Shown here: in pieces, positions 6,049 through 64,000 of the stretch
Position numbering within the stretch: position 1 is the first letter of the stretch
How the letters are laid out: each line of letters opens with the position of its first letter
Source: Eledone cirrhosa
Taxonomy: Eukaryota
Reading direction: 5' to 3'
NCBI GenBank assembly: GCA_964016885.1
Contig: CAXHJY010000651.1
Span: forward strand, 1-64,000
Length of the DNA stretch: 64,000 nt
Position numbers and translations under genes: made by a program
Notes under the pieces: generated by a model
The model's database searches: none
Told to the model about the DNA's origin: nothing
Seen by the model: only the letters and a program-made list of their open reading frames with translations

Positions 6049-6060
6049 TATTGTACTCTT

Positions 6061-7795: not shown

Positions 7796-7799
<4 letters not shown>

Positions 7800-8249
7800 T
7801 AATAAAAATAATGAATAAACAAAGAAACAGTTCCTTATATTAAAAAATTCATCATTTTACGATCGTTTCTAGGATATATATGTTAGTGTTGGTATTCAGA
7901 AGGAAAATACATACCTACACATATATATGCTGTCTTCATTCTGAAGACAGCATATATATGTGTAGATATGTATATTCCTTCTGATAGTTTGTAAAAATTT
8001 TACATAGATCTATATGATATGCATACCAACACTAACATATATATCCTAGAAACGATCGTAAAATGATGAATTTTTTAATATAAGGAACTGTTTCTTTGTT
8101 TATTCATTATTTTTATTGATTTATCTTGACTCTGTTTTCCTGTATTTTTCATCGAAAACAATTTTTGAATACATCTTCTCTTTTCATGATATTCGGATTA
8201 CATTGAGTTCTTCATACGGATTGGAAAGTAGCGTATATTTTGGTAGATT

Positions 8250-8256
<7 letters not shown>
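7796..8256 (+). mobile_element. PLE-like fold-back element with HHR motif; its tail recurs at 18655-18848
   Basis: 7796-7938 is inverted relative to 7942-8122 (left arm has an internal deletion); tcatt-CTGAAGA...GAAA-C-gatc-GTA-aaatga. Confidence 0.75.
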
Positions 8257-9734: not shown

Positions 9735-10040
9735 AGTTGGCATTTGTACCAAGAAGTTTCCGCTCCGAAGCACAAGGAGATGGAAGGTGTTTTCGTGGAA
9801 GATCAGCAAGTGCTCACGCATGCCAGTCTCCTTTCTCCATACCACCGTTGTTGTCCAAGGGAAAGGCAAGAGCCGATACAGCTTGGCACCAGTCAAATCG
9901 CAAATCATTTCTTTAGTTGAGTGAACTAAAGCAACGTGAAATAAAGTCTTACTCAAGGACGCAGTGCACCGCCAGCTTCGGGAATCGAACTCACAGCCTC
10001 ATGATTATGAATCCAATGCTCTAACTACTAAGCTACGAAC
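9735..10040 (-). mobile_element. CORE-type SINE with a distinct 3' tail
   Basis: Reverse strand has tagcttagtagttagagc, gagttcgattccc, gtccttgagtaagactttatttcacgttgc; tail-like pieces recur at ~255-400 and ~50075-50180. Confidence 0.7.
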
Positions 10041-10919
10041 CTATAAATACATACACACTCACTCATACACAAGCACACACTCACGCACACCCACTCACAA
10101 AACAAACAAACATACACTCATATATATTCGACGGGCTTCTGTACAATTTCTGTCTACTAAACTTCATTCACAAAGCATAGGTCAATCCATTAAAAAAGAA
10201 TGGTTTGGCCCTTTTGAGGGTTTTCAATGTCAGCTATTTCCTTTAACTCAATTCTGTTGTTCTTGTTTTGTTGTTGTTTTTATCACGCACATACATACAC
10301 AGTCATATGTAGAGGTGGGAAGGAAAGAGAAAGAAGGGAAGGAATGAAAGAGAGAGACACAGAGAGAAATAGAGGGCTTGTGTGAGAGAGAGAAAGTAAG
10401 TGAGAGAGAGTGAGTGAGAAAGAGAGTGAGAGAGAGAAAGGGAGAAAGAGAGAGAAAGAGAGAAAGAGAGAGTGGGAGAGAGAGAGAGAGAGTGTGTGTG
10501 TGAGAGAGAATCATATACTGTAGTTTTTTTTAAAGCACACGCTAGGAGGTTGTGATCGCATCAAATTCTAATTGTAGCGAAGTTACTGTCAACACAGAGT
10601 TCCTTTGTCACGTTGTTGTCATTGTTGTTGTTATTGCCATTTTTTTTTTTCATTTGTGCTTTTGTTTTTGTTGTTGTTGTTGTTGTTTGAAGGGAGTTTA
10701 CTTGCTTCTTTACTTTTTTCTTTTTCCTTTTTATTATTTATTTTTATTTATTTATTTGTTTGTTTGTTTGTTTATTGTTCTCTGGTTGTTCTAATATTTA
10801 AAAGTGACTTGTGTGAAATGGAGATGGATGGATTACTGAAACGGAACACTGACTTTTCAACAACATTAAGAAGACTAACACTAATAAAACAACACAAACA
10901 ACACAAACACTGAGACACA

Positions 10920-14247: not shown

Positions 14248-14685
14248 CGGCGATGAATTAGTTTTGCGAGGTTTTTTACATGAAATCGTGTGTCGAAACA
14301 AATATTGTTATACTTGGGGAGGGTCATGTTTGTGTAATAATATTGCCAGAATTAATAAGGCACTCACTGTTTGGTTGGTTTTCGCTTCTGTGTCTTTTCA
14401 GACTAAATAAAGATGGCGTAGGCATACAATACAACAGGAGGAAACATAATAGCACCACTGACGATGTTGCAGATGTGCAACGAAAGAACTTTGTTAGACT
14501 ATATATATGTGTTTGTGTCTATATTATATCTGTATTTTTACCGTTGGTCAGTCAATGGTAACATTGAGGACCGAATAAATTAAATTAACTGATATAAAAG
14601 ACACAGAAGCGAAAACCAACCAAACAGTGAGTGTGTTCTGTTATTAATTCTGGCTATATTATTACACAAATATGACCCTCCCCAT
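14245..14685. mobile_element. PLE-like element with inverted arms and internal HHR-like core, flanked by (TA)n
   Basis: 14316-14399 inverted against 14595-14683; CTGACGA-t-gttgca-gatg-tgcaac-GAAA at 14458-14485. Confidence 0.6.
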
Positions 14686-18235: not shown

Positions 18236-18482
18236 ATGCAAAAGTTTTATTTAAAATTGTTGGGTTACAACAAGTAAATATTTTATAACCGATATAAAGC
18301 ACTCGACAAGTTTTGGAGTAGATATACGATATTATTACGTCAAAATTATTTATAAAACTGTTTATATATTGTATTTTATCTGAAGAAGGCATACCATATT
18401 TTTAATATGGTATCCCCGAAATATGTATAATGAAATAAATATGGTTTTATAAATATAGTTTCCATTTGTTTAATATCGTATA
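18232..18482. mobile_element. Family A pLTR-like pieces in opposite orientations, with HHR on + strand
   Basis: 18232-18335 matches 4250-4345 directly; 18372-18440 is tttat-CTGAAGA-agg.ataccatat...atatggtat.cc-GAAA-tatgt-ATA-atgaa. Confidence 0.7.
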
Positions 18483-19299: not shown

Positions 19300-19462
19300 A
19301 TTCAAAATATTAACAAAATAGATATTCTTGCGATCAAGTATATTTTATTATACAAATATTTCAGAGGTACTGAGTTAAGTTCAACAGTACGTCCTCATCA
19401 GATAGAATAAGATGATGCATGACATACCCTGACATAGTAGATGTTTAAGATTCAGTCATGGT
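19300..19462 (-). mobile_element. PLE pLTR-like element with HHR motif, related to 39914-40148
   Basis: Reverse strand ttctat-CTGATGA-gg.cgtactg...cagtacctct-GAAA-tatttgtataataaaa. Confidence 0.6.
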
Positions 19463-21033: not shown

Positions 21034-21102
<69 letters not shown>

Positions 21103-21105
<3 letters not shown>

Positions 21106-21668
21106 CAAGGGAGTGTAAATACAGAAAATATAGTAAAAATTAATAATAAATAATTAAATTCCAAAAAATTCACTGTACTTACTATATGTGCCCTTACCGC
21201 GGTTTCAGATCCCAAATAAAAAGACAATCCAAGTGGATTTCCATTAAGAAAGAGATCATCGTCAGAAGGCTTTTCTCTCTCGGAGAATATAAAATTGCCG
21301 AGTTCAAATTACAAACTAGCGCCATACCAAACTGCCTCAGAATGAATCAGTTATGGTTAGGAACGCGTGCAAAGGCGAAAGCATGTTGAAAAGGTCAATC
21401 TAATGCTACTAAAAATAGCAGCTATACGAACGACCAAAGGTGTCTCTACCATTGGGGAGAAGAAGAATAAAAGTATGTGTTCTATATGTAAGTAATACAT
21501 ACAGGGATACAAGTATAGTTCGTAGGCTAGTGAGGTTCAATAGCAAGTTAATAAATTAACAAGCCAGAAAATATAAAATCAAGGGAGTGTAAACACAGAA
21601 AATATCTTAAAAAATAATAATAAATAATTAAATTCAAAAAATTCACTGTACTTACTATATGTGCCCTT
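21103..21668 (-). mobile_element. Retrozyme/PLE-like partial tandem element, 473 bp period, with intact HHR at 21190-21270
   Basis: 21103-21195 is directly repeated at 21577-21668; minus strand gcctt-CTGACGA-tgatc...gatct-GAAA-C-cgcg-GTA-agggc; (TA)n on both sides. Confidence 0.8.
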
Positions 21669-21815
21669 TATTATATATATATATATATATATATAAGATA
21701 CTTCACGGTGCTCATTCTACCTGGAGTTGCGACCGATAGATAGTATTAGCAATTGGAAAGACCAATGGAAACATTGTTTCCTCGGTCCGATTTGACGAAA
21801 GTCGATCGACTGTCG

Positions 21816-23928: not shown

Positions 23929-24050
<122 letters not shown>

Positions 24051-24092
24051 ATATATATGTCTGCTGAGCACACAAGCTATATCGATATACAA

Positions 24093-24124
<32 letters not shown>

Positions 24125-24182
24125 ATATATTTGTATATCGATATATATATATATATTTATATATATATATATTTGTATATCG

Positions 24183-24262
<80 letters not shown>

Positions 24263-24589
24263 GGGGGGTTGTATGGGTGTGTCGAGAGTTAGTAGAGAGG
24301 CAATAAGAAAAAGAAAAAGAAAAAGAAAAAGAAAAAGAAAAAGAAAAAGAAAAAGAAAAAGAAAAAGAAAAAGAAAAAGAAAAAACACGCAATGGTGGAC
24401 ATAATGACATTATCACATTTATCATACATGAATAGGTTTATTTAGAGCTGAGTAAGAGAGGGAAGCAAGATTAGATCAGTAATAATCTGTATATATAACG
24501 AGTTTAGGGTCACTTAACCCGTGCTTTCGACGTTTTAAGATTTTACTGTGTGTTGTGTTGTTCATCACTGTCACTACCATTGCCACTAC

Positions 24590-25175
24590 CACCACTACTA
24601 CTACAGCCAGCACTAGCACCATCACTACCACCCACACTAGTTCCATTACTGACACCAACGCCACCACCACCACTGCCACAGCCAACACTAGTTCCATCAC
24701 TGCCACCACCACTACCACCACTACAACGAACACTAACACCATCACTACCACGAACACTAGTTCCATTACTGACACCAACACCACCACCACTACAACCAAC
24801 ACTAGTTCCATCACTGACACCAACACCACCACCACTACAACCAACACTAGTTCCATCACTGACACCAACACCACCACCACTACAACCAACACTAGTTCCA
24901 TCACTGACACCAACACCACCACCACTACAACCAACACTAGTTCCATCACTGACACCAACACCACCACCACTACAACCAACACTAGTTCCATCACTGACAC
25001 CAACACCACCACCACTACAACCAACACTAGTTCCATCACTGACACCAACACCACCACCACTACAACCAACACTAGTTCCATCACTGACACCAACACCACC
25101 ACCACTACAACCAACACTAGTTCCATCACTGACACCAACACCACCAACACCACCACCACTACAACCAACACCACC
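24590..25175. repeat. 45 bp minisatellite
   Basis: accaacactagttccatcactgacaccaacaccaccaccactaca; actagttcc at 24801, 24846, ...; about 8 near-perfect units plus degenerate ones. Confidence 0.95.
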
Positions 25176-26149
25176 GCTGCACCAAAACTAACACTACCTC
25201 CATCACCACCACCAACACCACCAGTCCACTACAGCCAACACTACCTCCAATTCCGCTACCAACACCACCGCTGCACCAAAACCAACACTACCTCCATCAC
25301 CAGCACCAACACCACCACTCCACTACAGCCAACACTACCTCCAATTCCGCTACCAACACCACCGCTGCACAAAAACCAACACTACCTCCATCACCACCAC
25401 CAACACCACCACCACCACCAACACTACCAGCATTAGCCAATACTCCTCCACAACCACCACACTACCAAAACCGACAATACTAACACTAAAACTGCCAACG
25501 CTACAACCAAAACTACCACTATCACTACCACTATCACAACCACTATCACTACCACTATCACCACCACTACCAGCACAACCAACACTACCACCACCACTAA
25601 CAAGACAACCAACATTATCACTACACTACAACCCACACTACCACCACAACCAACACTACAACAAAAACAACACTACCACCACAACCAACACTACAACAAA
25701 AACAACACTACCACCACAACCAACACTACAACAAAAAACAACACTACCACAACAACCCACACAACCACCACAACCAACATTATCCCTACACTACAACCCA
25801 CACTACCACCACAACCAACACTACAACAAAAAACAACGCTACCACCACAAACAACACTACTACCACAACCAACACTACCACCACAACCAACACTACCACC
25901 ACAACCAACACTACTACTACAACCAACACTACCACCACAACCAACACTACCACTACAACCAACACTACCACCACAACCAACACTACCACCACAACCAACT
26001 CTACCACCACAACCAACTCTACTCCATCCCTGACTCCAACACCATCACCACAACTGACTCTACCACCACCAAGACTAACATCAAAACCACCACCACAATC
26101 GCCACTACCACCGACACACACACACACACCACCACTACCAACAATACTA

Positions 26150-29100
26150 CTACAACCACTACCATCACCAATACCACCACAACCGCCACTACCACCAACA
26201 CCCACACCACTACCATCACCAATATCCACCACAACCGCCACTACCACCAACACCCGCACCACTACCATCACCAATACCACCACAACCGCCACTACCACCA
26301 ACACCCACAACCACTACCATCACCAATACCACCACAACAACCACTACCACCAACACCCACACCACTACCATCACCAATACCACCACAACCGCCACTACCA
26401 CCAACACCCACAACCACTACCATCACCACTACCACCACAACCGCCACTACCACCAACACCCACAACCACTACCAGCACCAATACCACCACAAACGCCACT
26501 ACCACCAACACGCACAACCACTACCATCACCAATACCACCACAACCGCCACTACCACCAACACCCACACCACTACCATCACCAATACCACCACAACCGCC
26601 ACTACCACCAACACCCACACCACTACCAACACCAATACCACCACAACCGCCACTACCACCAACACGCACAACCACTACCATCACCAATACCAGCACAACC
26701 GCCACTACCACCAACACCCACACCACTACCATCACCAATACCACCACAACCGCCACTACCACCAACACCCACACCACTACCAACACCAATACCACCACAA
26801 CCGCCACTACCACCAACACGCACAACCACTACCATCACCAATACCACCACAACCGCCACTACCACCAACACCCACAACCACTACCATCACCAATACCACC
26901 ACAACCGCCACTACCACCAGCACCCACAACCACTACCATCACCAATACCACCACAACCGCCACTACCACCAACACCCACAACCACTACCATCACCAATAC
27001 CACCACAACTGCCACTACCACCAACACCCACAACCACTACCATCACCAATACCACCACAACCGCCACTACCACCAACACCCACAACCACTACCATCACCA
27101 ATACCACCACAACCGCCACTACCACCAACACCCACAACCACTACCATCACCAATACCACCACAACTGCCACTACCACCAACACCCACAACCACTACCATC
27201 ACCAATACCACCACAACCGCCACTACCACCAACACCCACACCACTACCAACACCAATACCACCACAACCGCCACTACCACCAACACGCACAACCACTACC
27301 ATCACCAATACCAGCACAACCGCCACTACCACCAACACCCACAACCACTACCAGCACCAATACCACCACAACCGCCACTACCACCAACACCCAGAACCAC
27401 TACCATCACCAATACCACCACAACCGCCACTACCACCAACACCCACAACCACTACCATCACCAATACCACCACAACAACCACTACCACCAACACCCACAC
27501 CACTACCATCACCAATACCACCACAACCGCCACTACCACCAACACCCACAACCACTACCATCACCAATACCACCACAACCGCCACTACCACCAACACCCA
27601 CAACCACTACCATCACCAATACCACCACAACCGCCACTACCACCAACACCCACACCACTACCATCACCAATACCACCACAACCGCCACTACCACCAACAC
27701 CCACAACCACTACCATCACCAATACCACCACAACCGCCACTACCACCAACACCCACAACCACTACCATCACCAATACCACCACAACCGCCACTACCACCA
27801 ACACCCACACCACTACCATCACCAATACCACCACAACCGCCACTACCACCAACACCCACAACCACTACCATCACCAATACCACCACAACCGCCACTACCA
27901 CCAACACCCACAACCACTACCATCACCAATACCACCACAACTGCCACTACCACCAACACCCACAACCACTACCATCACCAATACCACCACAACCGCCACT
28001 ACCACCAACACCCACAGCCACTACCATCACCAATACCACCACAACCGCCACTACCACCAACACCCACAACCACTACCATCACCAATACCACCACAACTGC
28101 CACTACCACCAACACGCACAACCACTACCATCACCAATACCACCACAACCGCCACTACCACCAACACCCACACCACTACCATCACCAATACCACCACAAC
28201 CGCCACTACCACCAACACCCACAACTACTACCATCACCAATACCACCACAACCGCCACTACCACCAACACCCACAACCACTACCATCACCAATACCACCA
28301 CAACCGCCACTACCACCAACACCCACAACCACTACCATCACCAATACCAGCACAACCGCCACTACCACCAACACCCACAACCACTACCAGCACCAATACC
28401 ACCACAACCGCCACTACCACCAACACCCAGAACCACTACCATCACCAATACCACCACAACCGCCACTACCACCAACACCCACAACCACTACCATCACCAA
28501 TACCACCACAACAACCACTACCACCAACACCCACACCACTACCATCACCAATACCACCACAACCGCCACTACCACCAACACCCACAACCACTACCATCAC
28601 CAATACCACCACAACCGCCACTACCACCAACACCCACACCACTACCATCACCAATACCACCACAACCGCCACTACCACCAACACCCACAACCACTACCAT
28701 CACCAATACCACCACAACCGCCACTACCACCAACACCCACAACTACTACCATCACCAATACCACCACAACCGCCACTACCACCAACACGCACAACCACTA
28801 CCATCACCAATACCACCACAACCGCCACTACCACCAGCACCCACAACCACTACCATCACCAATACCACCACAACCGCCACTACCACCAACACCCACAACC
28901 ACTACCATCACCAATACCACCACAACTGCCACTACCACCAACACCCACAACCACTACCATCACCACTACCCACCACAACCGCCACTACCACCAACACCCA
29001 CAACCACTACCATCACCAATACCACCACAACTGCCACTACCACCCAACACCCACAACCACTACCATCACCACTACCACCACAACCGCCACTACCACCAAC

Positions 29101-30842
29101 ACCCACAACCACTACCATCACCAATACCACCACAACTGCCACTACCACCAACACCCACAACCACTACCATCACCACTACCACCACAACCGCCACTACCAC
29201 CAACACCCACACCACTACCATCACCAATACCACCACAACCGCCTCTACCACCAACACCCACAACCACTACCATCACCACTACCACCACAACCGCCACTAC
29301 CACCAACACCCACACCACTACCATCACCATACCACCACAACCGCCACTACCACCAACACCCACAACCACTACCATCACCAATACCACCACAACCGCCACT
29401 ACCACAACACCCACAACCACTACCATCACCAATACCACCACAACCGCCACTACCACCAACACCCACAACCACTACCATCACCAATACCACCACAACCGCC
29501 ACTACCACCAACACCCACAACCACTACCATCACCAATACCACCACAACCGCCACTACCACCAACACCCACAACCACTACCATCACCAATACCACCACAAC
29601 TGCCACTACCACCAACACCCACAACCACTACCATCACCACTACCACCACGACCGCCACTAACCACCAACACCCACAACCACTACCATCACCAATACCACC
29701 ACAACTGCCACTACCACCAACACCCACAACCACTACCATCACCACTACCACCACAACCGCCACTACCACCAACACCCACAACCACTACCATCACCAATAC
29801 CACCACAACTGCCACTACCACCAACACCCACAACCACTACCATCACCACTACCACCACAACCGCCACTACCACCAACACCCACAACCACTACCATCACCA
29901 ATACCACCACAACCGCCACTACCACCAGCACCCACAACCACTACCATCACCACTACCACCACAACCGCCACTACCACCAACACCCACACCACTACCATCA
30001 CCAATACCACCACAACAACCACTACCACCAACACCCACACCACTACCATCACCAATACCACCACAACCGCCACTACCACCAACACGCACAACCACTACCA
30101 TCACCAATACCACCACAACCGCCACTACCACCAACACCCACAACCACTACCATCACCAATACCACCACAACCGCCACTACCACCAACACCCACAACCACT
30201 ACCATCACCACTACCACCACAACCGCCACTACCACCAACACCCACACCACTACCATCACCAATACCACCACAACCGCCACTACCACCAAACACCCACAAC
30301 CACTACCATCACCAATACCACCACAAACCGCCACTACCACCAACACCCACAACTACTACCATCACCAATACCACCACAACCGCCACTACCACCAACACGC
30401 ACAACCACTACCATCACCAATACCACCACAACCGCCACTACCACCAGCACCCACAACCACTACCATCACCAATACCACCACAACCGCCACTACCACCCAA
30501 CACCCACAACCACTACCATCACCAATACCACCACAACTGCCACTACCACCAACACCCACAACCACTACCATCACCACTACCACCACAACCGCCACTACCA
30601 CCAACACCCACAACCACTACCATCACCAATACCACCACAACTGCCACTACCACCAACACGCACAACCACTACCATCACCAATACCACCACAACCGCCACT
30701 ACCACCAACACGCACAACCACTTACCATCACCAATACCACCACAACCGCCACTACCACCAGCACCCACAACCACTACCATCACCACTACCACCACAACCG
30801 CCACTACCACCAACACCCACACCACTACCATCACCAATATCC
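26150..30842. repeat. ~4.7 kb minisatellite, 52/51 bp unit, ~90 copies
   Basis: accactaccatcaccaataccaccacaaccgccactaccaccaacacccaca with recurrent single-base variants. Confidence 0.97.
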
Positions 30843-31243
30843 ATGCTCTCGGTGAGTCATTCGATATTATAAGGACCAATATAAATGGGTAGGTACAATA
30901 TGTTTACAATATCTAATAGAACAACAACAAAAACATATACATAAATAAATACAAGAATAAATGAAGACCCCTACCTCATATTCTACGCTTCTTCCTCCAC
31001 CTCCACCTCTACCGCCACCCGTTCTTTCCCTTCAAAACATTAATATAAAACATATAATACGTATAGATATATATATTGAGTTAAGGGTGTGGATAGTAGG
31101 GTGGGTACTACATAGCAGAGAATCTGATAATATAGATTGTTGTCTGTTTATATGACATCATAGCGAACCTTAACTAATGTGATATAATAGTTTGAGGCAG
31201 TTAGAACGAATGAGAGGGGTGGGGAAATACTGTAAATATATAA

Positions 31244-31287
<44 letters not shown>

Positions 31288-31492
31288 TCTATGTGTGTTT
31301 GTGTGTTTGTGTGTGTATGGGGGGGGGCGTGTGTGTGTGTACAGTTGCATGGCTAGATATATGATAAATGTATAAGAATATATGTGTATAGGGTATCTAT
31401 GGGCGTCTGGATTATACGTTTATATATCTATGTGTGTGTGTGTGTAGGTGTAGGTGTGTGCGTGTGCCTGCCTACGTGAGTGTATGTATAGA

Positions 31493-31539
<47 letters not shown>

Positions 31540-31551
31540 ATATGCACACAT

Positions 31552-31588
<37 letters not shown>

Positions 31589-31618
31589 GTATATTATATA
31601 ATATACACATATATAAAT

Positions 31619-31693
<75 letters not shown>

Positions 31694-31702
31694 ATATACA
31701 TA

Positions 31703-31895
31703 TAACGAAGGAGTTGTGGTAAGGAACCAGAATGGATAACGCACCAGAGTACTCAATACTTAGGGTAGTAGAGTGGGTAATAGGAAAATGTATGACCCTG
31801 ACGGCAGAGCTCAAGCCGTTTCGACGGCTATTTCTTGGCTGAAACAGCCGTCGAAACGGCTTGAGCTCTGCCGTCGGGGTCTTACATTTTCCTAT
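31703..31895 (-). mobile_element. Hairpin-tail element copy 3
   Basis: Same tail and palindrome, within (TA)n. Confidence 0.9.
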
Positions 31896-31957
31896 ATATA
31901 TATATATATATATTATATAATATATATAATATATAGGTGTGTGTGTGTGTATATATT

Positions 31958-32010
<53 letters not shown>

Positions 32011-32730: not shown

Positions 32731-32864
32731 ATATAAATATATATATATAAGTAGAATGGTATTTAATTTGTTTGAAGTCCGACAAACATAAATGATAGAC
32801 TATCCAGTGAATTTCCAACCGATAAGGTATGATTTTCATGGGTATGTCTCTATTTATAAAACAA

Positions 32865-32980
32865 ACTTTGTATTTTATCTGATGAAAGCGTACCAATGAT
32901 GTCTTGGTTACCCTTGAAATATATATAATAAAATAAATATGGTTTTATAAATATAGTTTCCATTTATTTAATATCATTGT
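32865..32980 (+). ncRNA. Family A HHR motif with pLTR-like tail
   Basis: ttttat-CTGATGA-aag...ctt-GAAA-tatat-ATA-ataaaa. Confidence 0.65.
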
Positions 32981-34219: not shown

Positions 34220-34317
34220 TAAATTGAGGTGAAAAATTGCAGGTGCGTGTGTTTTTATTGCCAACATGACCCTCCCAAAGTATAACAATCTATCTATCTA
34301 TCTATCTAATCGATCGA

Positions 34318-34400
<83 letters not shown>

Positions 34401-34530
34401 ATATATATATATAGATCGATCGATCGATAGATAGATAGATAAATAGATAGATAGATAGATAGTTATACTTTTGGAGGGTCATGTTGGCAATAAAAACACA
34501 CGCACCTGCAATTTTTCACCTCAATTTATT
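34220..34530. repeat. Palindrome centred on a (TA)n tract
   Basis: 34220-34320 is the reverse complement of 34412-34530, including mirrored (ATCT)/(AGAT) and atcg repeats. Confidence 0.9.
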
Positions 34531-39814: not shown

Positions 39815-39913
39815 TATTAAAGTGTTAAACAATATGCAATGAGTATGTCAAAGAATGAGTTTTACCGTAGATTGGAAGCACTCTACGAATATATAATTTT
39901 CCGGAGTTATTAA

Positions 39914-40140
39914 TATTAAAATATAAATATTAATAAAATAGATGTTCTTTTGATCAATTATATTTTATTATATATATTTCAGATGTACAACAGTACGTCC
40001 TCATCAGACAAAATATAATGATATATGACATACCCTGAGATGTTAAATGGTTGTCTGATGATGATGTACTGTTGTACATCAGAAATATGTATAATAAAAT
40101 GTAATTGATCAAAAGAACATCTATTTTATTAATATTTATA

Positions 40141-40148
<8 letters not shown>
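39914..40148. mobile_element. Inverted pair of HHR-bearing pLTR-like arms
   Basis: 39914-40011 inverted against 40051-40148; + strand ttgt-CTGATGA-tgatgtac-tgtt-gtacatca-GAAA-tatgt-ATA-ataa. Confidence 0.8.
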
Positions 40149-40703: not shown

Positions 40704-41655
40704 TGGCAGTATCGGTAGAGGGTCGGACGCCATGCTTTCTAGCATGGAGTTAAACCCCTTTACGGTCTGAGTTCAAATCCCGCCGAGTTTAACTTTGCCT
40801 TTCATTCTTACGGGGTCAATAAAATAAAGCACCAGTAATGTACTGGGGTAATTGCTGGCCTTGTGCCAGAAATAGAAACAATTATCAAACAGGTGTTCTA
40901 CTGAGCAAGAATATTTCACTTCTACTTTTTATTCTCTCGTTAAAATCATTACACCTGTTCCCAAAATATGTTTATAAAATCGATACCTTCAATCCGGAAA
41001 CATGTTTCACCTTTATTTTTATTATTATTGTGGATTGGCAGAATCGGTAGTGCGTCAGACGTCATGCTTTGCAGCATAGAGTTACGGCTCTTTATGATCT
41101 GAGTTCAAATCCCGCCGAGGTTCACTTTGACTTTAATTCTTACGGGGTCGATAAAATAATTTACCAGTCACGCTCTGGGGTCAATTTAATCGACTTTCCC
41201 CTCCCCCAAAATTGCTGTCCTTGTGCCTATTTAAGAAACCATTATTGTGGATTGGCAGTATCGGTAGAGGGTTGGAAGCCATGCTTAGCAGCATAGAGTT
41301 ACGACCCTTTATGATCTGAGTTCTAATCCCGTCGAGGTTAACTTTACCTTTTATCCTTATGGAGTCGATAAATTAAAGCACCAGTAATGCACTGGGGTAA
41401 TTGCTGGCCTTGTGCCAAAAGTAGAAACAATATTTAAATTATCTAGGGTGATGGGGGGATTTGCAAAATTGGTAGAGCGTCGGATAAAATGCCCTTACGA
41501 TATTTGTTCAGGTTCTTTTCGTTCTGTGTTGAAATCCCATTAAAGTTAATTTTTCTCATCATCTCCCGTGATCGAGAAACTAATGTATCAGTAAAGACTT
41601 TCCCTTAATACAGACACAAAATTGCTGACTTTGTGCCTATATTAGAAACAATTAT
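40704..41655 (+). mobile_element. Cluster of four same-orientation SINEs (40704-40885, 41029-41243, 41247-41430, diverged 41450-41655)
   Basis: Each has a tggca...ggtag A box, gttc/gttgaaatcc B box and the shared tail. Confidence 0.85.

Positions 41656-42433: not shown

Positions 42434-42437
<4 letters not shown>
42225..42437 (+). mobile_element. Hairpin-tail element copy 6 (longest loop)
   Basis: Arms gaaccagta.gaccccgacagctgagctcaagccgtttcgacggctaattc / gaattagccgtcgaaacggcttgagctcagctgtcggggtc.tactggttc. Confidence 0.9.
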
Positions 42438-42485
<48 letters not shown>

Positions 42486-42490
<5 letters not shown>

Positions 42491-43343
42491 TGCATACCTA
42501 TGCTAGCAAATATATAGGTTTTGTCTTAGTAACTTTGTGGTTCAATGCAAGGGGATGCAGAACAATTATATGAAAGACGTAAAATAAGAAAATTATAAAA
42601 ATTAACTGACTAAAATTTCACTCCAACTAATTAGTTTCTGAAAGGGAATAAACATGGTTTTCCGAATGGAACATGGAGAATACCTTTCGTCATCAGGAAG
42701 TCAATTCTCAGATAAGTTCCCAGGCGATGCGTGGACACAGGGAACTTATACAAAACCTATATATTTGCTAGCATAGGTATGCATCTGTATATATATGTTG
42801 GTAGATATACTAATTCTTTATAATTACCTCCAAATTATTTTGTTGAGCAAAAATTTGCCAAAACTACTACTATAGTTCATAGTAATAGTCCGGCTACTGT
42901 CTTCTTAACACCCCACTCCTCACTGATTAACCTCGATGTCACGTGATTGATTCTTTTGAATTTGCCACCGACCAAGTAGGGAGTGATTTTTTCAATGTCT
43001 TGGAATTTAGTCCTCGCTTGCTTTTTTCCATCCACTGAATTATTTTTGTATAAGTTCCCTGTGTCCACGCATCGCCTGGGAACTTAGCTGAGAATTGACT
43101 TCCTGATGACGAAAGGTATTCTCCATGTTCCATTCGGAAATCATGTTTATTCCCTTTTAGAAACTAATTAGTTGGAGTGAAATTTTAGTAAGTAAGTTTA
43201 TTTTCATAATTTTCTTATTTTACGTCTTTCATATTATTGTTCTGCATCCCCTTGCATTGAACCACAAAGTTACTAAGACAAAACCTATATATTTGCTAGC
43301 ATAGGTATGCATCTGTATATATATGTTGGTAGATATACTAATT

Positions 43344-43348
<5 letters not shown>
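42486..43348 (+). mobile_element. PLE/retrozyme-like element: 5' inverted segment plus partial tandem (528 bp period), HHR at 43098-43178 and mirror at 42620-42701
   Basis: 42486-42755 is inverted against ~43045-43315; 42751-42820 is directly repeated at 43279-43348; acttc-CTGATGA-cgaaagg...cctttta-GAAA-ctaattag-TT-ggagt. Confidence 0.8.
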
Positions 43349-43386
<38 letters not shown>

Positions 43387-43786: not shown

Positions 43787-44959
43787 CGGTACATGCACAC
43801 TATATACACATGCCACCTAATAAATAATAGTAAACTAGATGAAACAGCCTCTCTTAATGAAAGCTTTCAGTCAAAACCTGTTTATCGATGAAAAGCTGTC
43901 ATTAAATCGGAAAATATGTCGAGTTGAGATTTAAAAGCTAAGAAACAATGGTTGTATTTATTTGTCAAGCTATCTGTTACAGACTTTTAAGAAAAGCTTT
44001 GCCAAAGTCAACCCCGTTATTATTGTAAGAAGGAGTTGTAAAGATGGTGGCATGCAAGAAGCTTAAGAGAGTTTTAACGAAAAGCTGATTAGAATCTTTG
44101 ATTAACTAGAATTAAATTCTTCCATTGCTTGTAATTATTCCCGGTGCATTCTTGAATTATTGACTGTTATTTCGTCTGTTTCTTAGCCATTCAGGGTGAA
44201 TGGGCGGGAAGTGATTAAACTGGGATCGGAGCAGGTGGAGAATGATCTGGAATCTAACTGAATATGTCAGTGGTAATGCTAGTGTTGTTGTTGTTGCTAG
44301 TGGTTGTGGTGGTGGTGGTGACTGTGGTTGTGTGTGGGGTGGTGGTGGTGGTGGGGGGGGGGGGGGTGACTGGGGGGGGGCTGTGGTTGTGTGTGGGGTG
44401 GTGATGATGATGTGGATATTCTTGGCGTTGATGGTAGTACTTGTGGTACTGCTGGTGTTCATCGTGGTGAAGGTGGTGGTGGTGGTGGCGGTGGCGTTGT
44501 TGTTGTTGTCGTTGTTGGTGGTGGTGGTGGTGGTGGAGGTGGTGGCGTTGTTGTTGTTGTTGGTGGTGGTGGTGGCGTTGTTGTTGTTGTTGTTGCTGGT
44601 GGTGTTGGTGATTATAGTGTATGGTCTGTTGTCGGTGGTTGTCTGGTCTTGGTGTTGGTATTGGGTCTATTGTTGGTGTTATTGTTGGTGCTGTTGTAGG
44701 TGTTGGTTAGTGTAGTGTGTGGTCTGTTGTTGGTGGTGGTGTTGGTGTTGGTGCTGGTGTTGGTAGTGGTGGTGTTGGTGTTGGTGCTAGTGTTGGTAGT
44801 GGTGTTGTTGGTGTTGGTGCTGTTGTAGGTGTTGGTTATTGTAGTGTATGGTCTGTTGTTGGTGGTGGTGTTGGTGTTAGTGCTGGTGTTGGTAGTGGTG
44901 TTGTTGGTGTTGGTGTTGGTGCTAGTTTTGGTAGTGGTGTTGTTGGTGTTGTTGCTGGT

Positions 44960-45700
44960 GTTGTTGGTGTTGGTGTTGTTAATTGTAGTGTATGGTGTGT
45001 TGTTGGTGTTGGTGTTGTTGATTGTAGTGTATGGTGTGTTGTCGGTGGTGGTGCTGGTGTTGTTGGTGTTGGTGTTGTTGATTGTAGTGTATGGTCTGTT
45101 GTCGGTGGTGGTGCTGGTGTTGTTGGTGTTGTTGATTGTAGTGTATGGTCTGTTGTCGGTGGTGGTGCCATTGTTGTTGGTGTTGGTGTTGTTAATTGTA
45201 GTGTATGGTGTGTTGTCGGTGGTGGTGCTGGTGTTGTTGGTGTTGGTGTTGTTGATTGTAGTGTATGGTGTGTTGTCGGTGGTGGTGCCATTGTTGTTGG
45301 TGTTGGTGTTGTTAATTGTAGTGTATGGTCTGTTGTCGGTGGTGGTGCTGGTGTTGTTGGTGTTGGTGTTGTTGATTGTAGTGTATGGTCTGTTGTCGGT
45401 GGTGGTGCTGGTGTTGTTAGTGTTGGTGTTGTTGATTGTAGTGTATGGTCTGTTGTCGGTGGTGGTGCCATTGTTGTTGGTGTTGGTGTTGTTAATTGTA
45501 GTGTATGGTGTGTTGTCGGTGGTGGTGCTGGTGTTGTTGGTGTTGGTGTTGTTGATTGTAGTGTATGGTGTGTTGTCGGTGGTGGTGCCATTGTTGTTGG
45601 TGTTGGTGTTGTTAATTGTAGTGTATGGTGTGTTGTCGGTGGTGGTGCTGGTGTTGTTGGTGTTGGTGTTGTTGATTGTAGTGTATGGTCTGTTGTCGGT
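44960..45700. repeat. 60 bp minisatellite with two alternating variants
   Basis: tgttggtgttgtt(g/a)attgtagtgtatggt(c/g)tgttgtcggtggtggtgc(tggtg/cattg)ttgttgg in exact 60 bp register from 45181. Confidence 0.95.
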
Positions 45701-45896
45701 GACAGTGGTAATGGAAAAGGAAAAGCTAAAAGACCATTCTCATTAATCGCAGAGTTTCCAGTATTAAGTAGTAGTAATTGGAAACGAATTTAGAAATAAG
45801 CCGTTAGCATTCATTATCTTCTTGTTTTTCACTTTTCTCTTTGCCGTATGGCTTATTACTTGAGTTTATTACCATTGTTCTTCGTCTTCTTATTAA

Positions 45897-45951
<55 letters not shown>

Positions 45952-45972
45952 GTTATTATTGTTATTATTATT

Positions 45973-46115
45973 GGTGGATTGGCAGTATCGGTAGAGGGTC
46001 GGATGCCATGCTTTGATGTATAGAGTTTGCCTTACATCCTAACGGGGTCGATAAAATAAAGTACCAGTAATGTACTGGGTAATTGCTGGCCTTGTGCCAA
46101 ACGTAGAAACAATTA
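45973..46115 (+). mobile_element. tRNA-head SINE with internal deletion (B box lost)
   Basis: A box and tail present; gagttcaaatcc segment missing. Confidence 0.8.
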
Positions 46116-46154
46116 TTATTATTATTACTATTATTATTATTATTATTATTATTT

Positions 46155-46206
<52 letters not shown>

Positions 46207-46377
46207 GAGGAGGAGGAGGAGGAGGAGGAGGAGGAGAAGGAGGAGGAGGAGAAGGGGGAGGAGGAGGAGGAGGAGGAGGAGCAGCAGCAGCAGCAGAGCA
46301 GCAGCAGTAGTAGTATCATCGTCATCATCAACCACATCATCATCAAATATTTTTATCATTGTTATTGTTGCTGATGA

Positions 46378-46432
<55 letters not shown>

Positions 46433-47345
46433 GATAGTGTTGTTATATCACTTATTAATTCTGTTGATGTTGTTGTTACCACAGTCGCCGTCACCGTTGT
46501 TGTCGTTGTTTTGGCCGGTGGCGATGGTGGCACCGTGGTATTGATTATATTTTCGGTGGTGATGGTGGTGGTGGTGGTGCTGGTGGTGGTGGTGAGAGTG
46601 TTGGTGGTGGTGGTGAGAGTGATGGTGGTGGTGGTGAGAGTGATAGTGGTGGTGGTGAGAGTGTTGGTGGTGGTGGTGAGAGTGATGGTGGTGGTGGTGG
46701 TGGTGAGGGGGATGGTGGTAGAGGTGATGGTGGTGGTGGTGGTAGTTGGGTGAGAGTAATGTTGTTGGTGCCGGTGCTTGTGCTGGTGCTGGTGGTTGGG
46801 TGAGGGTGATGGTGGTGGTGTTGGTGGTGGTTTTGGTGGTGGTTGTGGTGGTGGTGGTGCTGGTGCTGGTGCTGGTGCTGGTGCTGGTGATTGGGTGAGG
46901 GTGGTGGTGGTGGTGGTGGGGGTGGTTTTGGTGGTGGTTGTGGTGGTGTTGGTGCTGGTGCTGGTGCTGGTGCTGGTGCTGGTGCTGGTGATTGGGTGAG
47001 GGTGGTGGTGTTGGTGGTGGTTTTGGTGGTGGTTGTGGTGGTGTTGGTGCTGGTGCTGGTGCTGGTGCTGGTGCTGGTGCTGGTGATTGGGTGAGGGTGG
47101 TGGTGGTGGTGTTGGTGGTGGTTTTGGTGGTGGTTGTGGTGGTGTTGGTGCTGGTGCTGGTGGTTGGGTGAGGGTGGTGGTGGTGGTGGTGGTGGTGTTG
47201 GAGGGGGGGGTGATTATGTTTTCGTCAATGTCGGCATCGAGAATGAAGATGGTTTTGACACGGTGGTGGTGTTGGTGATACTGGTGATAATGCTGCTGAT
47301 GCTGCTGCTGTTGTTGTTGTTGTTGTTGTTGTTGTTGGTTGCCGC
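46115..47345. repeat. Compound trinucleotide microsatellite block (ATT, AGT, AGG, AGC, GTT, GGT)
   Basis: Seen directly; source of the spurious 466 aa ORF. Confidence 0.95.
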
Positions 47346-47639
47346 CATTGTTAACGACGATGAGGATTGAAGTATTAACCGACATACAACTTAATAATGC
47401 GCAATGATTCACCTTAAACACAACACCAATCCACCGCATTTCATTCTGATGAATGACGTTAGAGACTACACATACGTATCTATACTAGGTGTATAAACAT
47501 ATAGGCTAAACACAAACTGACACATAAAGAAGATGCACACCAACCCACATATATATTCACACACAAACACACATACAGAGAGACAGAGAATCCATTGTGG
47601 CAGGTTCTGCTGAAGTATAGTATCCATGTGAAGCTTCCT

Positions 47640-48612: not shown

Positions 48613-49463
48613 ACATACATGTGAACTTGAGATCCCAGATTCGATGTAACTTTGTGTAACATTCATCCCCTGAGATTTGAAATTCCTTCCCGATTCAGAA
48701 TCACTGCTTAAACGTTTTTGGTAATTCTCCATCCCTTACATTCCTTTAAATATATTACCATCGTCTGTTCTGGGTTGTGGCCTCGCAGAATTGATAGAGC
48801 ATCAGTATTTATTCCGCATACTGAGTTCAAATCCCACCGAGATCGACTTTGCCTATTGTGATTCCAGGTTTGATAAAATAATGTCCCAGTCAAGTACTGG
48901 GGTTGAATTAATCAACTTTGCCTTTACCCCAAATTTGCTGGCCTTGTGTTTAGATTAGAAATATGTATAGTCTTTGGATAAGAATGGAGTTCACGTAATC
49001 TCAGTACCCCCCCCCCCCCCCCCTTCCCTACTCTGTACCCTCTCCTCCCCATTCACCACATCCTGCTTACGTACTTTATGTCTAATTAAGAAATCGTTGT
49101 TTCATTACAGACTTCACCACTCTTCCATATACGTGCAGGATGATAATAAATGACATCAAAGAAAACCGGCCATATGGAGCAGAGCCAGTCATCTGTCTTA
49201 TTTAATTCTCTCATTCCCATACATTTTCCAGAAACATATGTTCAAAATCCATTGTTTTTACCGTAATCCTTTTAGTCTAATGTATTCACATTGCACCGTT
49301 TCACCCTATGGATTACTATAATCCAGTCTGCAGGATTTAGACATTGTTACTGTTGTTGCTGTTGTTGTTGTTAAAGAAATCATTACTATTATTGTTAATG
49401 TTTTTTTGTTGTTTTTGTTATTTTTGATGTCGTTATTTATTATCGTTAATACTGTTCTTATGA

Positions 49464-49976
49464 ATTGACAGTATCGGTTAGGCATTGGACAACATGTTTT
49501 ACAGCATAGAGTTACAGCCTTTTACGTTCTGAGTTCAAATCTCGCCGAGGTTAGCTTTGCCTTTCATCCTTACGGGATCGATAAAATAAAGCACCAGTAA
49601 TGCACTGGGGTCGATTTAATCGATTTTCCCCTCCCCTATAATTGTGATAAGGTTACTTCTGTTGGCTATGGTGGTGGCTGCAATCGTAATTTTAGTAAAA
49701 TTCAACGACGTAATTGTGGTGATTTGGGAGTTAACAGTACACCAAAACTGTATATTTATGGTGCTGGTGTTGTATAGGCACAAGGCCAGTAATCGGGGAG
49801 GGGGGAGCCGATTAATTCGACCCCAGTGCGTGACTGGTACTTTATTTTATCGACCCTCGTAAGGATGAAAGGCAAAGTTAACCTCGGCGGGATTTGAACT
49901 CAGATCATAAAAGGCCGTAACTCTATGCTGCAAAGCATGGCGTCCCACTCTACCGATACTGCCAATCCATCGCCCT
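49464..49976. mobile_element. Convergent SINE pair (49464-49640 +, 49775-49976 -); diverged copies also at 48775-48960 (+) and 50250-50370 (-)
   Basis: Family motifs on both strands. Confidence 0.85.
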
Positions 49977-54540: not shown

Positions 54541-54659
54541 TAAGACATAATTAGCCAGGTTAAAGATAAAGATCAATGAAAGTCCACTTCAAAGACTCCA
54601 ACATTCAAGCATTGGCAACCAGGACAATTCATTATGAAAATAACAAAATGATAATAATA

Positions 54660-55110
54660 ATGGTTTCTTATATAGGCACAAGGCCAGCAATTTTGGGGGA
54701 GGGGAAAGACGATTAAATCGACCCCAGTGCGTGACTGGTACTTTATTTTATCGACCCTGTAAGGATGAAAGGCAAAGTTAGCCACGGCGGGATTTGAACT
54801 CAGATCATAAAGGGACGTAAGTCTATGCTGCAAAGCATGACGTCCGGCCCTTTACCGATACTGCCAATCCACCGCCCTCAAAATGATAATAATAATAATA
54901 ATAATGACAATAATAATAGTTTCTGATTTAGGCACAAGGCCAATTTTAGGGGATGGGAAAGTCGATTAAATCAACCCCAGTGCGTTACTGGTGCTTTATG
55001 AAAGGCAAAGCTAACCTTAGCGGGACTTGGACTCAGACCGTAAAGGGCCGTAACTCCATGCTGCAAAGCAAGGTGTCCGACGCTCTACTGACTCTGCCAA
55101 TCAACCGCCC
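54660..55110 (-). mobile_element. Two tandem SINEs (54660-54878, 54918-55110); diverged copy at ~55695-55820
   Basis: Reverse-complement family motifs. Confidence 0.85.
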
Positions 55111-55169
55111 TATTAATAGTAATAATGATAAAGGTTTCTTTATTGGCCACAAGGGCCGAAACATGAAGG

Positions 55170-57174: not shown

Positions 57175-57224
57175 ATTAAGTATAACAAGACAAAGTTTCA
57201 CATTAATGTCTTCGCTGATTATTG

Positions 57225-57465
57225 AGCTGTTACGTACATTTCATAGATGATTGGCTCAAGGTCAATATTTGTGCTAGAGACCCGACACCAGCATCAACCT
57301 GATCATCAGATTTGTCATTCAAACTAAAAACAAGGTTTCCCTCGGATTAAATGTTGTCTTTAACTTAATTAACATGCCCGATGAGCAGCTTAATGGTGGA
57401 GTTGGGTCTATAACACAAATATGAACCTTGGGCAAATCATCTGTGAAACATACGTAACAAGTCGA
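57225..57465. mobile_element. Diverged inverted pair of HHR-bearing arms
   Basis: + strand CCGATGA-gcag...ctgt-GAAA-C-atac-GTA at 57378-57456; - strand CTGATGA...GAAA-tgtac-GTA at ~57228-57310. Confidence 0.55.
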
Positions 57466-57582
57466 TAATACATTAAAACAGTATTGTGTTACGTCATCTT
57501 GTAGTTAATTCATATACTCTGCCTTAATATTGACTTCTGATATTGGTACCACATCCAGTTACATACAAAGTTATTGAAAACT

Positions 57583-58553: not shown

Positions 58554-60375
58554 ATCATTATCACCTTCAAACCAACACAATCAAGATTAATTCATTTGCT
58601 ACTCTTCGTCATAGTAGACTAACACTAGAGAAGACTGAGTGGTCATTTGACCTGCTAGACATAGCAGTCAAATGTGCCTCAAATCACACCTTTTGAAATA
58701 TAGAACACTTTGGTAGTTTGAGCTATTGGACTCTAATGTATTTTGAGATACACAGTTTGAATAAAAGATGGGATGGGATGGAATGGTCATGTCTTGAATA
58801 AAAGATGTTCTATCATAGCACACCCAGATTGGGGTGAGGGTAAATAACATTGAAATACTGCCACACTCACCCTATCTACACACTCATAACCCTCAATGCT
58901 CACACCCACCCACTAATATCACCACTCAAATGCTATCGAAATCATGTGGAGCATAACAACTCTCCAATCAGACAGACATACAGACAGTCCTACAACAACG
59001 ACACCAACATGGAAATATGACAAACAGACAAGCTGATAGACTGGCCGACAGGTAAGCAGGAGGGTCTACGCCTGCGCCATCGGCATATAAATATGTCAAG
59101 CAGACAGCCTACACCAGCGCCACCATCGTGTAAATATGTCAAATAATATATCAGAAGCATAACATGTCTACAACCACAGCGATCGTTCAAGATAAGATCC
59201 ATTTAATAGCGGAAACTAGCGAGATGGAGGCTGTCTCGTAGCTAGCTTATCTCAATAAAAATGGCGAAACTAGCGAAAGAATTATTCATTTATTTGTTTA
59301 TTATCACAGCCTGTTTGTCAGACTGTTCGACTGTCTACCTACACAGCTATCTCACACACACACGCGCACGCACACACACAAATACACACACACTCATAGA
59401 GACACTCTCAGACTTGTACACACAGAGACACAGTTATATACAGAAACACATACACATCACTCGCACATAATCACACACTCACATACATATAGTCACACAC
59501 TCTCAAACTGTCTAACACACACAATCACACATAGTCACACACTCCCCCACTTCTCTCTTCTTATATATTATATTATATTTCTTTTGCAATTCTATAAATT
59601 CTTCATAGAAAGAGTTTTTAAAACTTATTGTAGACTGACAGCAGACCAGTAAGATAACTCGGGTAATATATTCTATCCTATCAAGTCCTTGCAAAACATC
59701 GGATAGATATTGCATCATAACCTCCTCAGCGGACAAAATGGTGAATACGTTATTCCGAGTGATAGCAAGTGACTCAGTCGACCTCACGGAATTCGTACAT
59801 GCTGATGGCCATCGTCATCACGATTATATAAAAACACAATTCCATTGCTGGAATTTTCATAACAACAACCAATAAGTTTCATGCTAAACATTACAGATGC
59901 CTTATTTTGAAGGTTCCCCTTATAGATTGAATTTATCGATGGTCTTTTTCTTGGCCTGATCACCCCAGCATTACCGTTTGAGGAACTGTACCCGATTATT
60001 TTGTCACTTTCTACACAAATGTAGTTTTGGATGCTGATTACCATAACCACAACGATTTTTGGAAAATATAAAAATAAAGGTTGTTACGGTTTCTTAAAAA
60101 CTGATAACATTTTTATTTTTAGTTATATGGGCCAGTCAGGTATTTAGTATTTATCCTATACACCGCAGTTTACTTGGAACTAGTTCTTTATACATTCACG
60201 AATATATCCTGGAGTCACTAAATGTTTCGAGTCTTACAATATATATGCTCATATAGGTGACCCGCCTGGGGTTAATGTAGCTTTGGTCCGTGTCCAAGTA
60301 GATTACTTACATCCAGCCCCATCTATCACTTCTCTTCAGACATAACCATCTAGATTCTCTCTCTCTGTTTTTTCT

Positions 60376-63104: not shown

Positions 63105-63118
63105 CATAGGGTGGGGGC

Positions 63119-63166
63119 TAAGCTCTGAGGAATACCAACAGTATGAAACAGAGATCTGTCAGCTTA
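63119..63166 (+). ncRNA. Type I hammerhead ribozyme, copy 1
   Basis: taagct-CTGAGGA-atac-caaca-gtat-GAAA-cagagatctg-TC-agctta; three stems pair; GUC site at 63158-63160. Confidence 0.85.
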
Positions 63167-63239
63167 TCTCCCTTTGTTTGTTGAAAAAACAAGTAAGTGA
63201 CATAGTCACTACTTTAAAAATACATAGGGGGGGGGGGGC

Positions 63240-63287
63240 TAAGCTCTGAGGAATACCAACAGTATGAAACAGAGATCTGTCAGCTTA
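63240..63287 (+). ncRNA. Type I hammerhead ribozyme, copy 2 (121 bp downstream, identical)
   Basis: Identical sequence within a 121 bp direct repeat. Confidence 0.85.
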
Positions 63288-63410
63288 TCTCCCTTTGTTT
63301 GTTGAAAAAACAAGTAAGTGACATAGTCACTACTTTAAAACAATAGCGTAAGGTCATCAAAATGCTTTTAATTAAACATACAGTGTATTACCAAATACAC
63401 TATATATACA

Positions 63411-63870: not shown

Positions 63871-64000
63871 AAATGGTCTAAGGGGTTTAGTTATGTTCCT
63901 TTACAGTCCCAGTTCAGACATCGGTTTATATATATATATATATAAACCGATGTCTGAACTGGGACTGTAAAGGAACATAACTAAACCCCTTAGACTATTT
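63871..64000. repeat. Near-perfect palindrome centred on (TA)8, running off the window end
   Basis: 63871-63927 is the reverse complement of 63944-64000 with one mismatch. Confidence 0.95.

Follow-up and report, generated by a model that had tools for sequence, protein, structure and literature searches.

An 860-base insertion in a TA microsatellite of Eledone cirrhosa carries a hammerhead motif and no detectable gene, and is a real, well-preserved structure of the Penelope-like element (PLE) type. It lies in a 64-kb stretch of one contig (64,000 nt, all of it analysed and referred to here as the window) and combines a partial tandem with a pLTR, an adjacent inverted and 5'-truncated copy, a one-ended tail and a sense type I hammerhead. 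The insertion probably arose as a single event, in which a non-coding RNA of 528 nt would have been copied into the microsatellite by a PLE's reverse transcriptase and endonuclease acting in trans. The initial annotation had likewise proposed a non-autonomous 528-nt RNA mobilised by PLE machinery; the inverted arm, partial tandem, tail, hammerhead and TA target bear out mobilisation of the PLE type, but not 528 nt as a propagating unit, of which the window holds no second copy. The parts of the insertion are as follows.

42435-42486, no strand: left (TA)n target tract (TRF, 26 copies, 100%)
42487-42755, minus: inverted 5'-truncated arm, a copy of 43044-43315, whose 3' end merges into the TA tract via TATATATAT
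42750-42822, plus: upstream copy of the partial tandem, a truncated pLTR with the same sequence as 43278-43350
42751-42755, no strand: CAAAA microhomology where the inverted arm joins the forward cDNA (sequence match)
42823-43043, plus: single-copy non-coding spacer of 221 nt, structured, with no ORF match
43044-43347, plus: pLTR-like forward arm (arm and repeat comparisons)
43316-43347, plus: PLE tail, at the right end only, between two inferred reverse-transcription starts (as defined in the accessible part of PMC11167929)
43347-43449, no strand: right (TA)n target tract (TRF)

The inverted arm of 269 bp (42487-42755) is the reverse complement of 43044-43315, with 95.6% identity over 273 aligned columns (BLAST E 2e-127), and corresponds to the inverted segment of about 270 bp noticed earlier. 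It is separated from the forward arm by seven substitutions and two indels, every one of them inside 43087-43235. The direct repeat, spaced at 528 nt, is exact over 73 nt (42750-42822 and 43278-43350), so that its two copies show no differences. At the junction, CAAAA (42751-42755) doubles as the reverse complement of TTTTG at 43044-43048 and as a copy of 43279-43283, which is where the switch had been placed initially (42751/43279); the microhomology is limited to these 5 nt, with no longer match. The two arms of the 42487-43347 insertion are 288 nt apart and hold the partial tandem between them. The spacer, first estimated at about 225 bp, measures 221 nt. What had been called a 70 bp tail is indeed a repeated segment, of exactly 73 nt, but it is the partial-tandem copy; the PLE tail is 43316-43347, nominally 32 nt long, or 23-35 nt allowing for TA ambiguity. 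Similarly, the tandem proposed earlier holds as a partial direct repeat and not as a tandem of ribozyme-bearing units, as the locus comprises 1.13 units with one hammerhead per strand and one sense hammerhead in all. An alternating TA run of 9 nt, which occurs once in the unit (1 of 528 positions), marks where the inverted arm terminates; the forward arm terminates at a 4-nt TA run, of a kind found at 16 of 528 positions. The GC content of the unit is 34.7%. A 25-nt probe had 2 matches, compared with 0 in 100 shuffles. No second copy of the 528-nt unit was found within the 64-kb window by BLAST, self-comparison or the 25-nt probe, and the 528-nt period therefore rests on a single junction.

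Each arm contains a type I hammerhead, with the core CTGATGA at 43103 on the plus strand and at 42696 on the minus strand.

42620-42701, minus: type I hammerhead motif, inverted copy, with core at 42696 and predicted cut site U17 at 42625
43098-43178, plus: type I hammerhead motif, forward copy, with predicted cut after U43173
43098-43102 with 43174-43178, plus: stem I of the forward hammerhead (this and the next four from descriptor and folding)
43103-43109, plus: core
43111-43158, plus: branched stem II
43160, plus: GAAA
43163-43172, plus: palindromic stem III
43188-43193, plus: splice-donor-like GTAAGT, a candidate, 14 nt past the cut site; the inverted copy has GTCAGT

The palindromic stem III and the GUU site described initially were located, together with an intact core, in both arms. 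Stem III of the forward hammerhead reads ACTAATTAGT and is followed by the GUU site with its predicted cut after 43173, and the palindrome ACUAAUUAGU precedes the GUU site in either arm; GUU is counted among the cleavable triplets in PMC3138052. Stem I has 5 bp and is lengthened by a distal helix. A C.A mismatch, placed where G10.1-C11.1 is usual (PMC4209133), is followed by the 6-bp branched stem II. The nine arm differences leave stem III, proximal stem I and the core untouched; a single one affects the basal stem II helix, where a G-C pair becomes G.U. Rfam gave the focal ribozyme no score at the gathering threshold or at E<=5, and TA-repeat noise was its only match at the locus. An alternative register with GAAA at 43137 leaves stem III with a single pair and was dropped. 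The stretch at 42923, considered as a degenerate second hammerhead, fits better as a partial complement of the actual ribozyme. PLE insertions can carry a retained intron in or beside the pLTR; for the GTAAGT at 43188 no clear splice acceptor was found in the element sequence, and a pairing of branch point and acceptor spanning the tandem junction was set aside, since the first AG there is an atypical GAG.

Folding predicts that a single ribozyme is mostly inactive. In the minimum free energy structure of the monomer the core pairs with stem III, and the active fold makes up about 0.3-0.6% of the predicted ensemble. Two copies are predicted to form a double hammerhead at -54.4 kcal/mol with an extra A14-U17 pair, so that the unconstrained dimer does not have the active geometry; with the core forced open the predicted energy is -51.8, against -45.8 for two monomers. 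Among 300 stem III shuffles, judged by a topology criterion relaxed at A14 and U17, the double hammerhead was kept in 16 of 17 palindromic sequences versus 5 of 283 non-palindromic ones. The dimeric cleavage suggested earlier is supported in silico by this dependence on the palindrome and by the misfolded monomer. Cleavage is predicted to be weak and to require two copies paired via ACUAAUUAGU; 8 of 9 predicted Xenopus retrozyme dimers failed to cleave in vitro (10.64898/2026.07.22.740005). A read-through transcript of the locus is predicted to form a long hairpin that buries the ribozyme. Since it has only one sense ribozyme, the focal copy cannot release a monomer, and on these models it is likely to be inert, a dead end.

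The longest sense frame inside the unit has 47 codons, and the absence of a recognisable ORF reported at the outset was upheld in Pfam, homologue, Atlas and seven-motif searches, which are weak on fragments of this length. An ORF with reverse transcriptase and GIY-YIG endonuclease was absent from the element as judged by Pfam, homologue and motif searches on short or stop-broken frames, one of the three sense frames being covered by Pfam and the motif scan only. Pfam returned no family below E 0.067 for 16 open frames of the element, two minus-strand matches at E 0.067 and 0.11 being judged chance, and none below E 1 for six read-through frames; nine read-through frames of the element and a sister element (below) were also negative. 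The 40-aa spacer frame had no homologue, one read-through sense frame had 0 matches in 1.84 billion proteins, and an Atlas search gave nothing usable. A scan for seven PLE motifs, run without a positive control, gave 0 matches. Prokaryote genomes contain no exact 25-nt match, as expected, which is uninformative. In these short-fragment searches the spacer did not appear as the 3' end of a GIY-YIG ORF, which, combined with an absence of tandem copies, had been named beforehand as refuting the initial reading. Counted by eye, the stop codon in five of the six Hydra consensi of PMC8557442 precedes the core by 52-177 nt, and here the 280 nt between the 42822/42823 junction and the core contain no ORF end. 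In the sixth, Ajap-1, the terminal motif is about 330 nt from the core (PMC8557442), a distance reaching past the spacer, which counts against the non-coding reading.

Folded as a circle, the 528-nt unit has a z of -5.1, and its minus strand folds as strongly. The spacer has a z of -3.3 on the plus strand and -3.7 on the minus strand, values as low as which occurred in 0 of 45 background windows. Because folding of the spacer and of the whole unit is equally strong on the minus strand, it is no proof of selection on the RNA. None of the predicted helices clearly crosses the 42822/42823 junction. Three predicted structures stand out.

42913-42930, plus: candidate anti-ribozyme stretch, pairing with stem III, the cut site and the 3' arm of stem I (-17.7 kcal/mol)
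42974-43023, plus: long hairpin in the spacer, predicted in the circular fold
43288-43337 and again 42760-42809, plus: predicted 22-bp G.U-rich terminal hairpin (z -4.15 on plus versus -0.26 on minus)

The pairing of 42913-42930 was equalled in 5 of 2000 shuffles nominally and in 13-41 of 200 once the choice of window was allowed for, and its role as an anti-ribozyme strand is suggestive only. The terminal 22-bp hairpin is the only strand-specific folding in the unit. At 43288-43337 it spans the first inferred 3' end and stops 10 nt before the second, and the two inferred 3' ends bracket it.

The focal architecture is common in the window, not rare. A strict hammerhead descriptor gave 12 matches, compared with 0 in each of 100 shuffles, and 14 further inverted-arm inserts were picked from a self-comparison. 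In 11 of these 14, one arm lies no more than 15 nt from a (TA)5+ tract and the other arm farther away, where 14% of random positions are that near; in several the arms are 0-6 nt apart. Besides the focal pair, opposite-strand hammerheads occur at 905/1023 and 40007/40055.

796-1270: inverted-arm insert with the opposite-strand hammerhead pair 905/1023
39820-40145: inverted-arm insert with the opposite-strand hammerhead pair 40007/40055
21101-21669, minus: sister element, a 473-nt partial tandem between TA tracts, with repeats about 94% identical
43188, 21184 (minus), 63193 and 63314: donor-like GT[A/C]AGT sites (positions approximate)

The sister ribozyme has the palindrome ACCGCGGU and a GUA site. 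It shares the focal helices with 3 of 5 stem I pairs and 4 of 6 stem II pairs (7/11) changed on both sides, and is likewise predicted to favour the dimer and to end in a strand-specific hairpin. The 5' end of the sister element is within 1-2 nt of its cut site, which suggests a linear, ribozyme-cut template for this copy; its 3' end has no TA microhomology. No ORF traces were found in the 473-nt sister unit by Pfam or in read-through frames. Donor-like GT[A/C]AGT sites occur 12-32 nt past the cut in three of seven hammerhead families (P about 3e-4, post hoc). The sister, the 63125 family and the inverted copy of the focal element each have an open frame in phase 0 from core to donor; a 1-nt indel interrupts this frame in the forward copy of the focal element. 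At 63109-63340 (plus), a 121-nt head-to-tail duplication, 99% identical and with a hammerhead per copy, may be a retrozyme, since on its face it fits the two-unit definition, or else a local duplication.

Other hammerhead-bearing or TA-associated sequences were recorded alongside these. Related hammerhead-bearing 3' ends whose stem III is A/T-only or near-palindromic lie at 4254-4620, 18242-18477, 32799-32975 and 19305-19446; the frame 4422-4610 (minus), upstream of the 4438 hammerhead, resembled an endonuclease end and had no homologue. TA-associated inverted-arm inserts at 7797-8254, 14316-14683, 34222-34526, 57185-57502 and 63871-64000 were unscored by the strict descriptor, and compact hammerheads at 19885 (plus) and 48336 (minus) were read by eye or in a looser scan. 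The decayed stretch around 48336, which has no Pfam match, we take to be LINE-like. A TA-flanked family of about 200 bp has eight copies (19644, 20842, 21911, 31705, 32538, 34692, 42228 and 57969), one of which adjoins the focal insertion; each full copy has a hairpin of about 50 bp with arms co-varying within the copy, a variable junction and a one-sided extension of about 80 nt, and the family shows a GAAAC half-core and no CUGANGA.

The remainder of the window includes a SINE-like family of about 190 bp with many copies (5859-6240, 13364, 18956, 40704-41431, 49451-49976, 53343, 54657-55135, 58357 and others), which presumably resembles octopus SINEs. A degenerate tRNA-like sequence at 9973-10042 (minus; 32 bits), the only Rfam match in the window besides the TA-repeat noise at the focal locus, is probably a SINE head. 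Long, strongly skewed triplet-rich tracts, partly with a 60-bp period, at 24000-32000 (plus) and 44250-47500 (minus) are possibly Thr/Pro-rich mucin-like exons. A possible host exon at 59515-59814 had no homologue. Pfam searches of 148 other window ORFs (of 155 listed; two of the rest were scanned among the element frames and five left out) gave three unrelated low-complexity matches, none of them to a PLE.

In the mechanism that we favour, the PLE endonuclease would nick both strands of the TA tract. The first nick would prime at the end of the tail (43347-50) and copy 528+70 nt, a 598-nt cDNA, from a template longer than one unit, that is, a tandem transcript or a circle. The second, about 32 nt upstream (43316-24), would prime where the terminal hairpin has its tip and copy about 270 nt, possibly from another, slightly different RNA, and the two cDNAs would then join head to head at CAAAA. 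Pairing of ribozymes in dimers would occur in tandem source transcripts. The arms differ at nine positions and the terminal repeats at none (P 0.046 and 0.030, with clustering statistics drawn from 9 events), a hint of two templates, although the case that the arms come from two RNAs is weak and gene conversion would give the same pattern. The purified anole PLE protein (PAc) provides a precedent in PMC11167929: in vitro it nicks and extends both strands of AT-rich DNA, its reverse transcription starts at two stem-loop sites whose spacing equals the tail, and its ribozyme cuts only with the protein present and is dispensable for insertion. By analogy, the helper is most likely a TA-targeting PLE of the Hydra type.

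The same layout could be left by a 5'-truncated autonomous PLE with a long 3' UTR, if reverse transcription broke off at 528 nt and then jumped to a different RNA, at its 3' end; the length would then be a one-off, with no short family behind it. Such a jump likewise predicts a repeat ending at the 3' terminus and fits the lack of a second unit copy in the 64-kb window. Truncation at the 5' end affects most PLE copies, and a lone hammerhead is usually the sign of such a remnant (PMC4209133); in one of the six Hydra consensi a long stretch follows the terminal motif (PMC8557442). We consider this origin improbable, because five of the six Hydra consensi have their ORF end 52-177 nt upstream of the core, where the focal element has none in 280 nt, because partial tandems in the literature have their full-length copy downstream (PMC8557442), and because a second short unit in the window, of 473 nt, is also without ORF traces. 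An even less probable history, and quite unlikely in our view, starts from a full-length autonomous PLE of standard layout that later lost its ORF by one internal deletion, the spacer being a fusion of 5' UTR and 3' UTR. Numerous Penelope copies have been inactivated through microhomology-mediated deletions (PMC3846280), the Hydra 5' and 3' UTRs total roughly 280 nt by eye (PMC8557442), and the tail-ATG frame ...LLSKNLP is loosely like the Hydra N-terminal YSFKNIP (PMC8557442), a weak, post hoc likeness. Yet the deletion must have excised the ORF almost exactly, with no remnant at either side, the absence of differences in the 73-bp repeat implies that little time has passed, and the same accident would be required in the sister.

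The inverted arm, for its part, might have come from fold-back self-priming on an antisense template, or from DNA repair, instead of second-strand priming. Self-priming was proposed for head-to-head PLE junctions (PMC3846280) and predicts closely spaced arms such as those of the several window inserts with 0-6 nt between them, but the focal arms lie 288 nt apart with the partial tandem between, the junction palindrome is no longer than 5 nt, and nine differences separate the arms where the tandem copies have none, all of which makes this route very unlikely. That the locus is an assembly artefact or a non-PLE inverted-repeat element resembling a MITE seems scarcely credible: TA-flanked inverted repeats are difficult to assemble (PMC8557442) and TA is the insertion site of MITEs, but the arms differ at nine positions, the tail makes the ends asymmetric, each arm holds a hammerhead, and 14 other inserts in the window follow the same logic.

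Copying of a short non-coding RNA by PLE enzymes in trans bears on the relation between retrozymes and PLEs, which so far consists of shared ribozymes, co-occurrence and pLTR homology (PMC7229834; 10.64898/2026.07.22.740005), and on the formation of tandem and inverted PLE structures, which is called unsettled in PMC8557442. Inversion, partial tandem, tail and ribozyme come together here in one short ORF-less locus, which makes it convenient for testing; in a genome rich in such inserts, junctions and start sites could be counted over many copies. The focal locus alone is one more example and no new kind of system, opposite-strand hammerhead pairs (PMC4209133), non-autonomous pLTR PLEs (PMC8557442) and PLE-derived retrozymes (10.64898/2026.07.22.740005) having already been published. 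A further-reaching and doubtful reading is that the locus is the footprint of a retrozyme-sized RNA integrated by PLE machinery, from two family RNAs at both nicked TA strands, one of them copied for more than one round of a 528-nt circle, and that with the sister it represents a class of long, donor-bearing, obligate-dimer retrozymes in which an anti-ribozyme spacer keeps the monomer uncut. If true, this would be direct structural evidence for a partnership of retrozymes and PLEs. No description of the focal family was found in the literature covered, outside which lay most subscription papers and the repeat databases.

Within the accessible parts of the cited papers, the hallmarks of PLEs are inverted 5' copies, partial tandems, tails of 30-40 bp, hammerheads and (TA)n targeting, and non-autonomous PLEs are known (PMC8557442); the focal layout matches the PLE layout of that paper and that of Pen2a_Av (PMC3846280). 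With Pen2a_Av and PAc (PMC11167929) it shares two direct pLTRs and an adjacent inverted one (with a 31-bp tail there), a TATATATA motif in the pLTR, an ATG in the ribozyme stem II region and, putatively here, two reverse-transcription starts in a stem-loop. Those elements have an 842-aa ORF in place of the 221-nt spacer, and PAc starts at RNA sites non-homologous to the cut DNA, whereas both focal ends coincide with runs of TA (9 and 4 nt). Short, non-coding, pLTR-forming head-to-tail insertions are also described for MRC1 of Chlamydomonas (PMC8557442) and short butterfly Penelopes (10.1101/596502), which are likened here by description only; Chlamys elements mostly lack canonical hammerheads, unlike the focal element (PMC8557442). 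The Schistosoma hammerhead pairs of PMC4209133 are similar in lying on opposite strands (100-700 bp apart there, 407 bp here) and in their small palindromic stem III and predicted dimers, but they were read as truncated PLEs, and no complete short unit was found described in the accessible text.

The closest ribozyme layout is that of the Hydra clade (Craig et al. 2021, PMC8557442; e.g. Hydra-1_Obim), which shares the (TA)n target, 5'-truncated inverted copies and a 3'-terminal hammerhead with a 4-bp AC..GT stem III, often with U as the cut-site base and a mismatch at the foot of stem II. The helper is assigned by resemblance only. In the Hydra table, counted by eye, AC...GT stem III of 3-4 bp occurs in 25 of 25 families, a mismatch at the base of stem II in 15 and U at the cut site in 10, and nearly all target (TA)n (PMC8557442). 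The focal element differs from Hydra PLEs in having no reverse transcriptase or GIY-YIG ORF, and from the table in its longer, branched stem II region of 51 nt. Neptune and Naiad also target microsatellites, and the octopus genus has TA-targeting families of both Hydra and Naiad on record (PMC8557442); O. vulgaris has 31 recently active PLE families (PMC13282606). Three element motifs of 12-16 nt were absent from the Naiad/Chlamys/Hydra supplement of PMC8557442, by exact matching, which misses diverged kin, in a file that omits most host families.

Animal non-LTR retrozymes, for which PLE mobilisation and a pLTR origin have been proposed, resemble the focal element in their type I hammerhead, lack of an ORF and low GC (34.7% here, <45% there) (PMC7229834; 10.64898/2026.07.22.740005). 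Strong self-pairing as a circle, another retrozyme trait, is predicted for the focal unit and equally for its minus strand. At 528 nt the element is larger than the 170-400 nt range of Cervera & de la Pena 2020 (PMC7229834), but Li et al. 2026 (10.64898/2026.07.22.740005) give a range of 51-972 bp, which includes it. It departs from retrozymes in having 1.13 units and one sense ribozyme where two units define them, in a PLE-like ribozyme with long stem II and basal mismatch, and in its inversion and tail, neither of which was found described for retrozymes in the accessible parts of these two papers. The element works like a retrozyme but has fewer than the two units of one at this locus, and it is not an autonomous PLE either.
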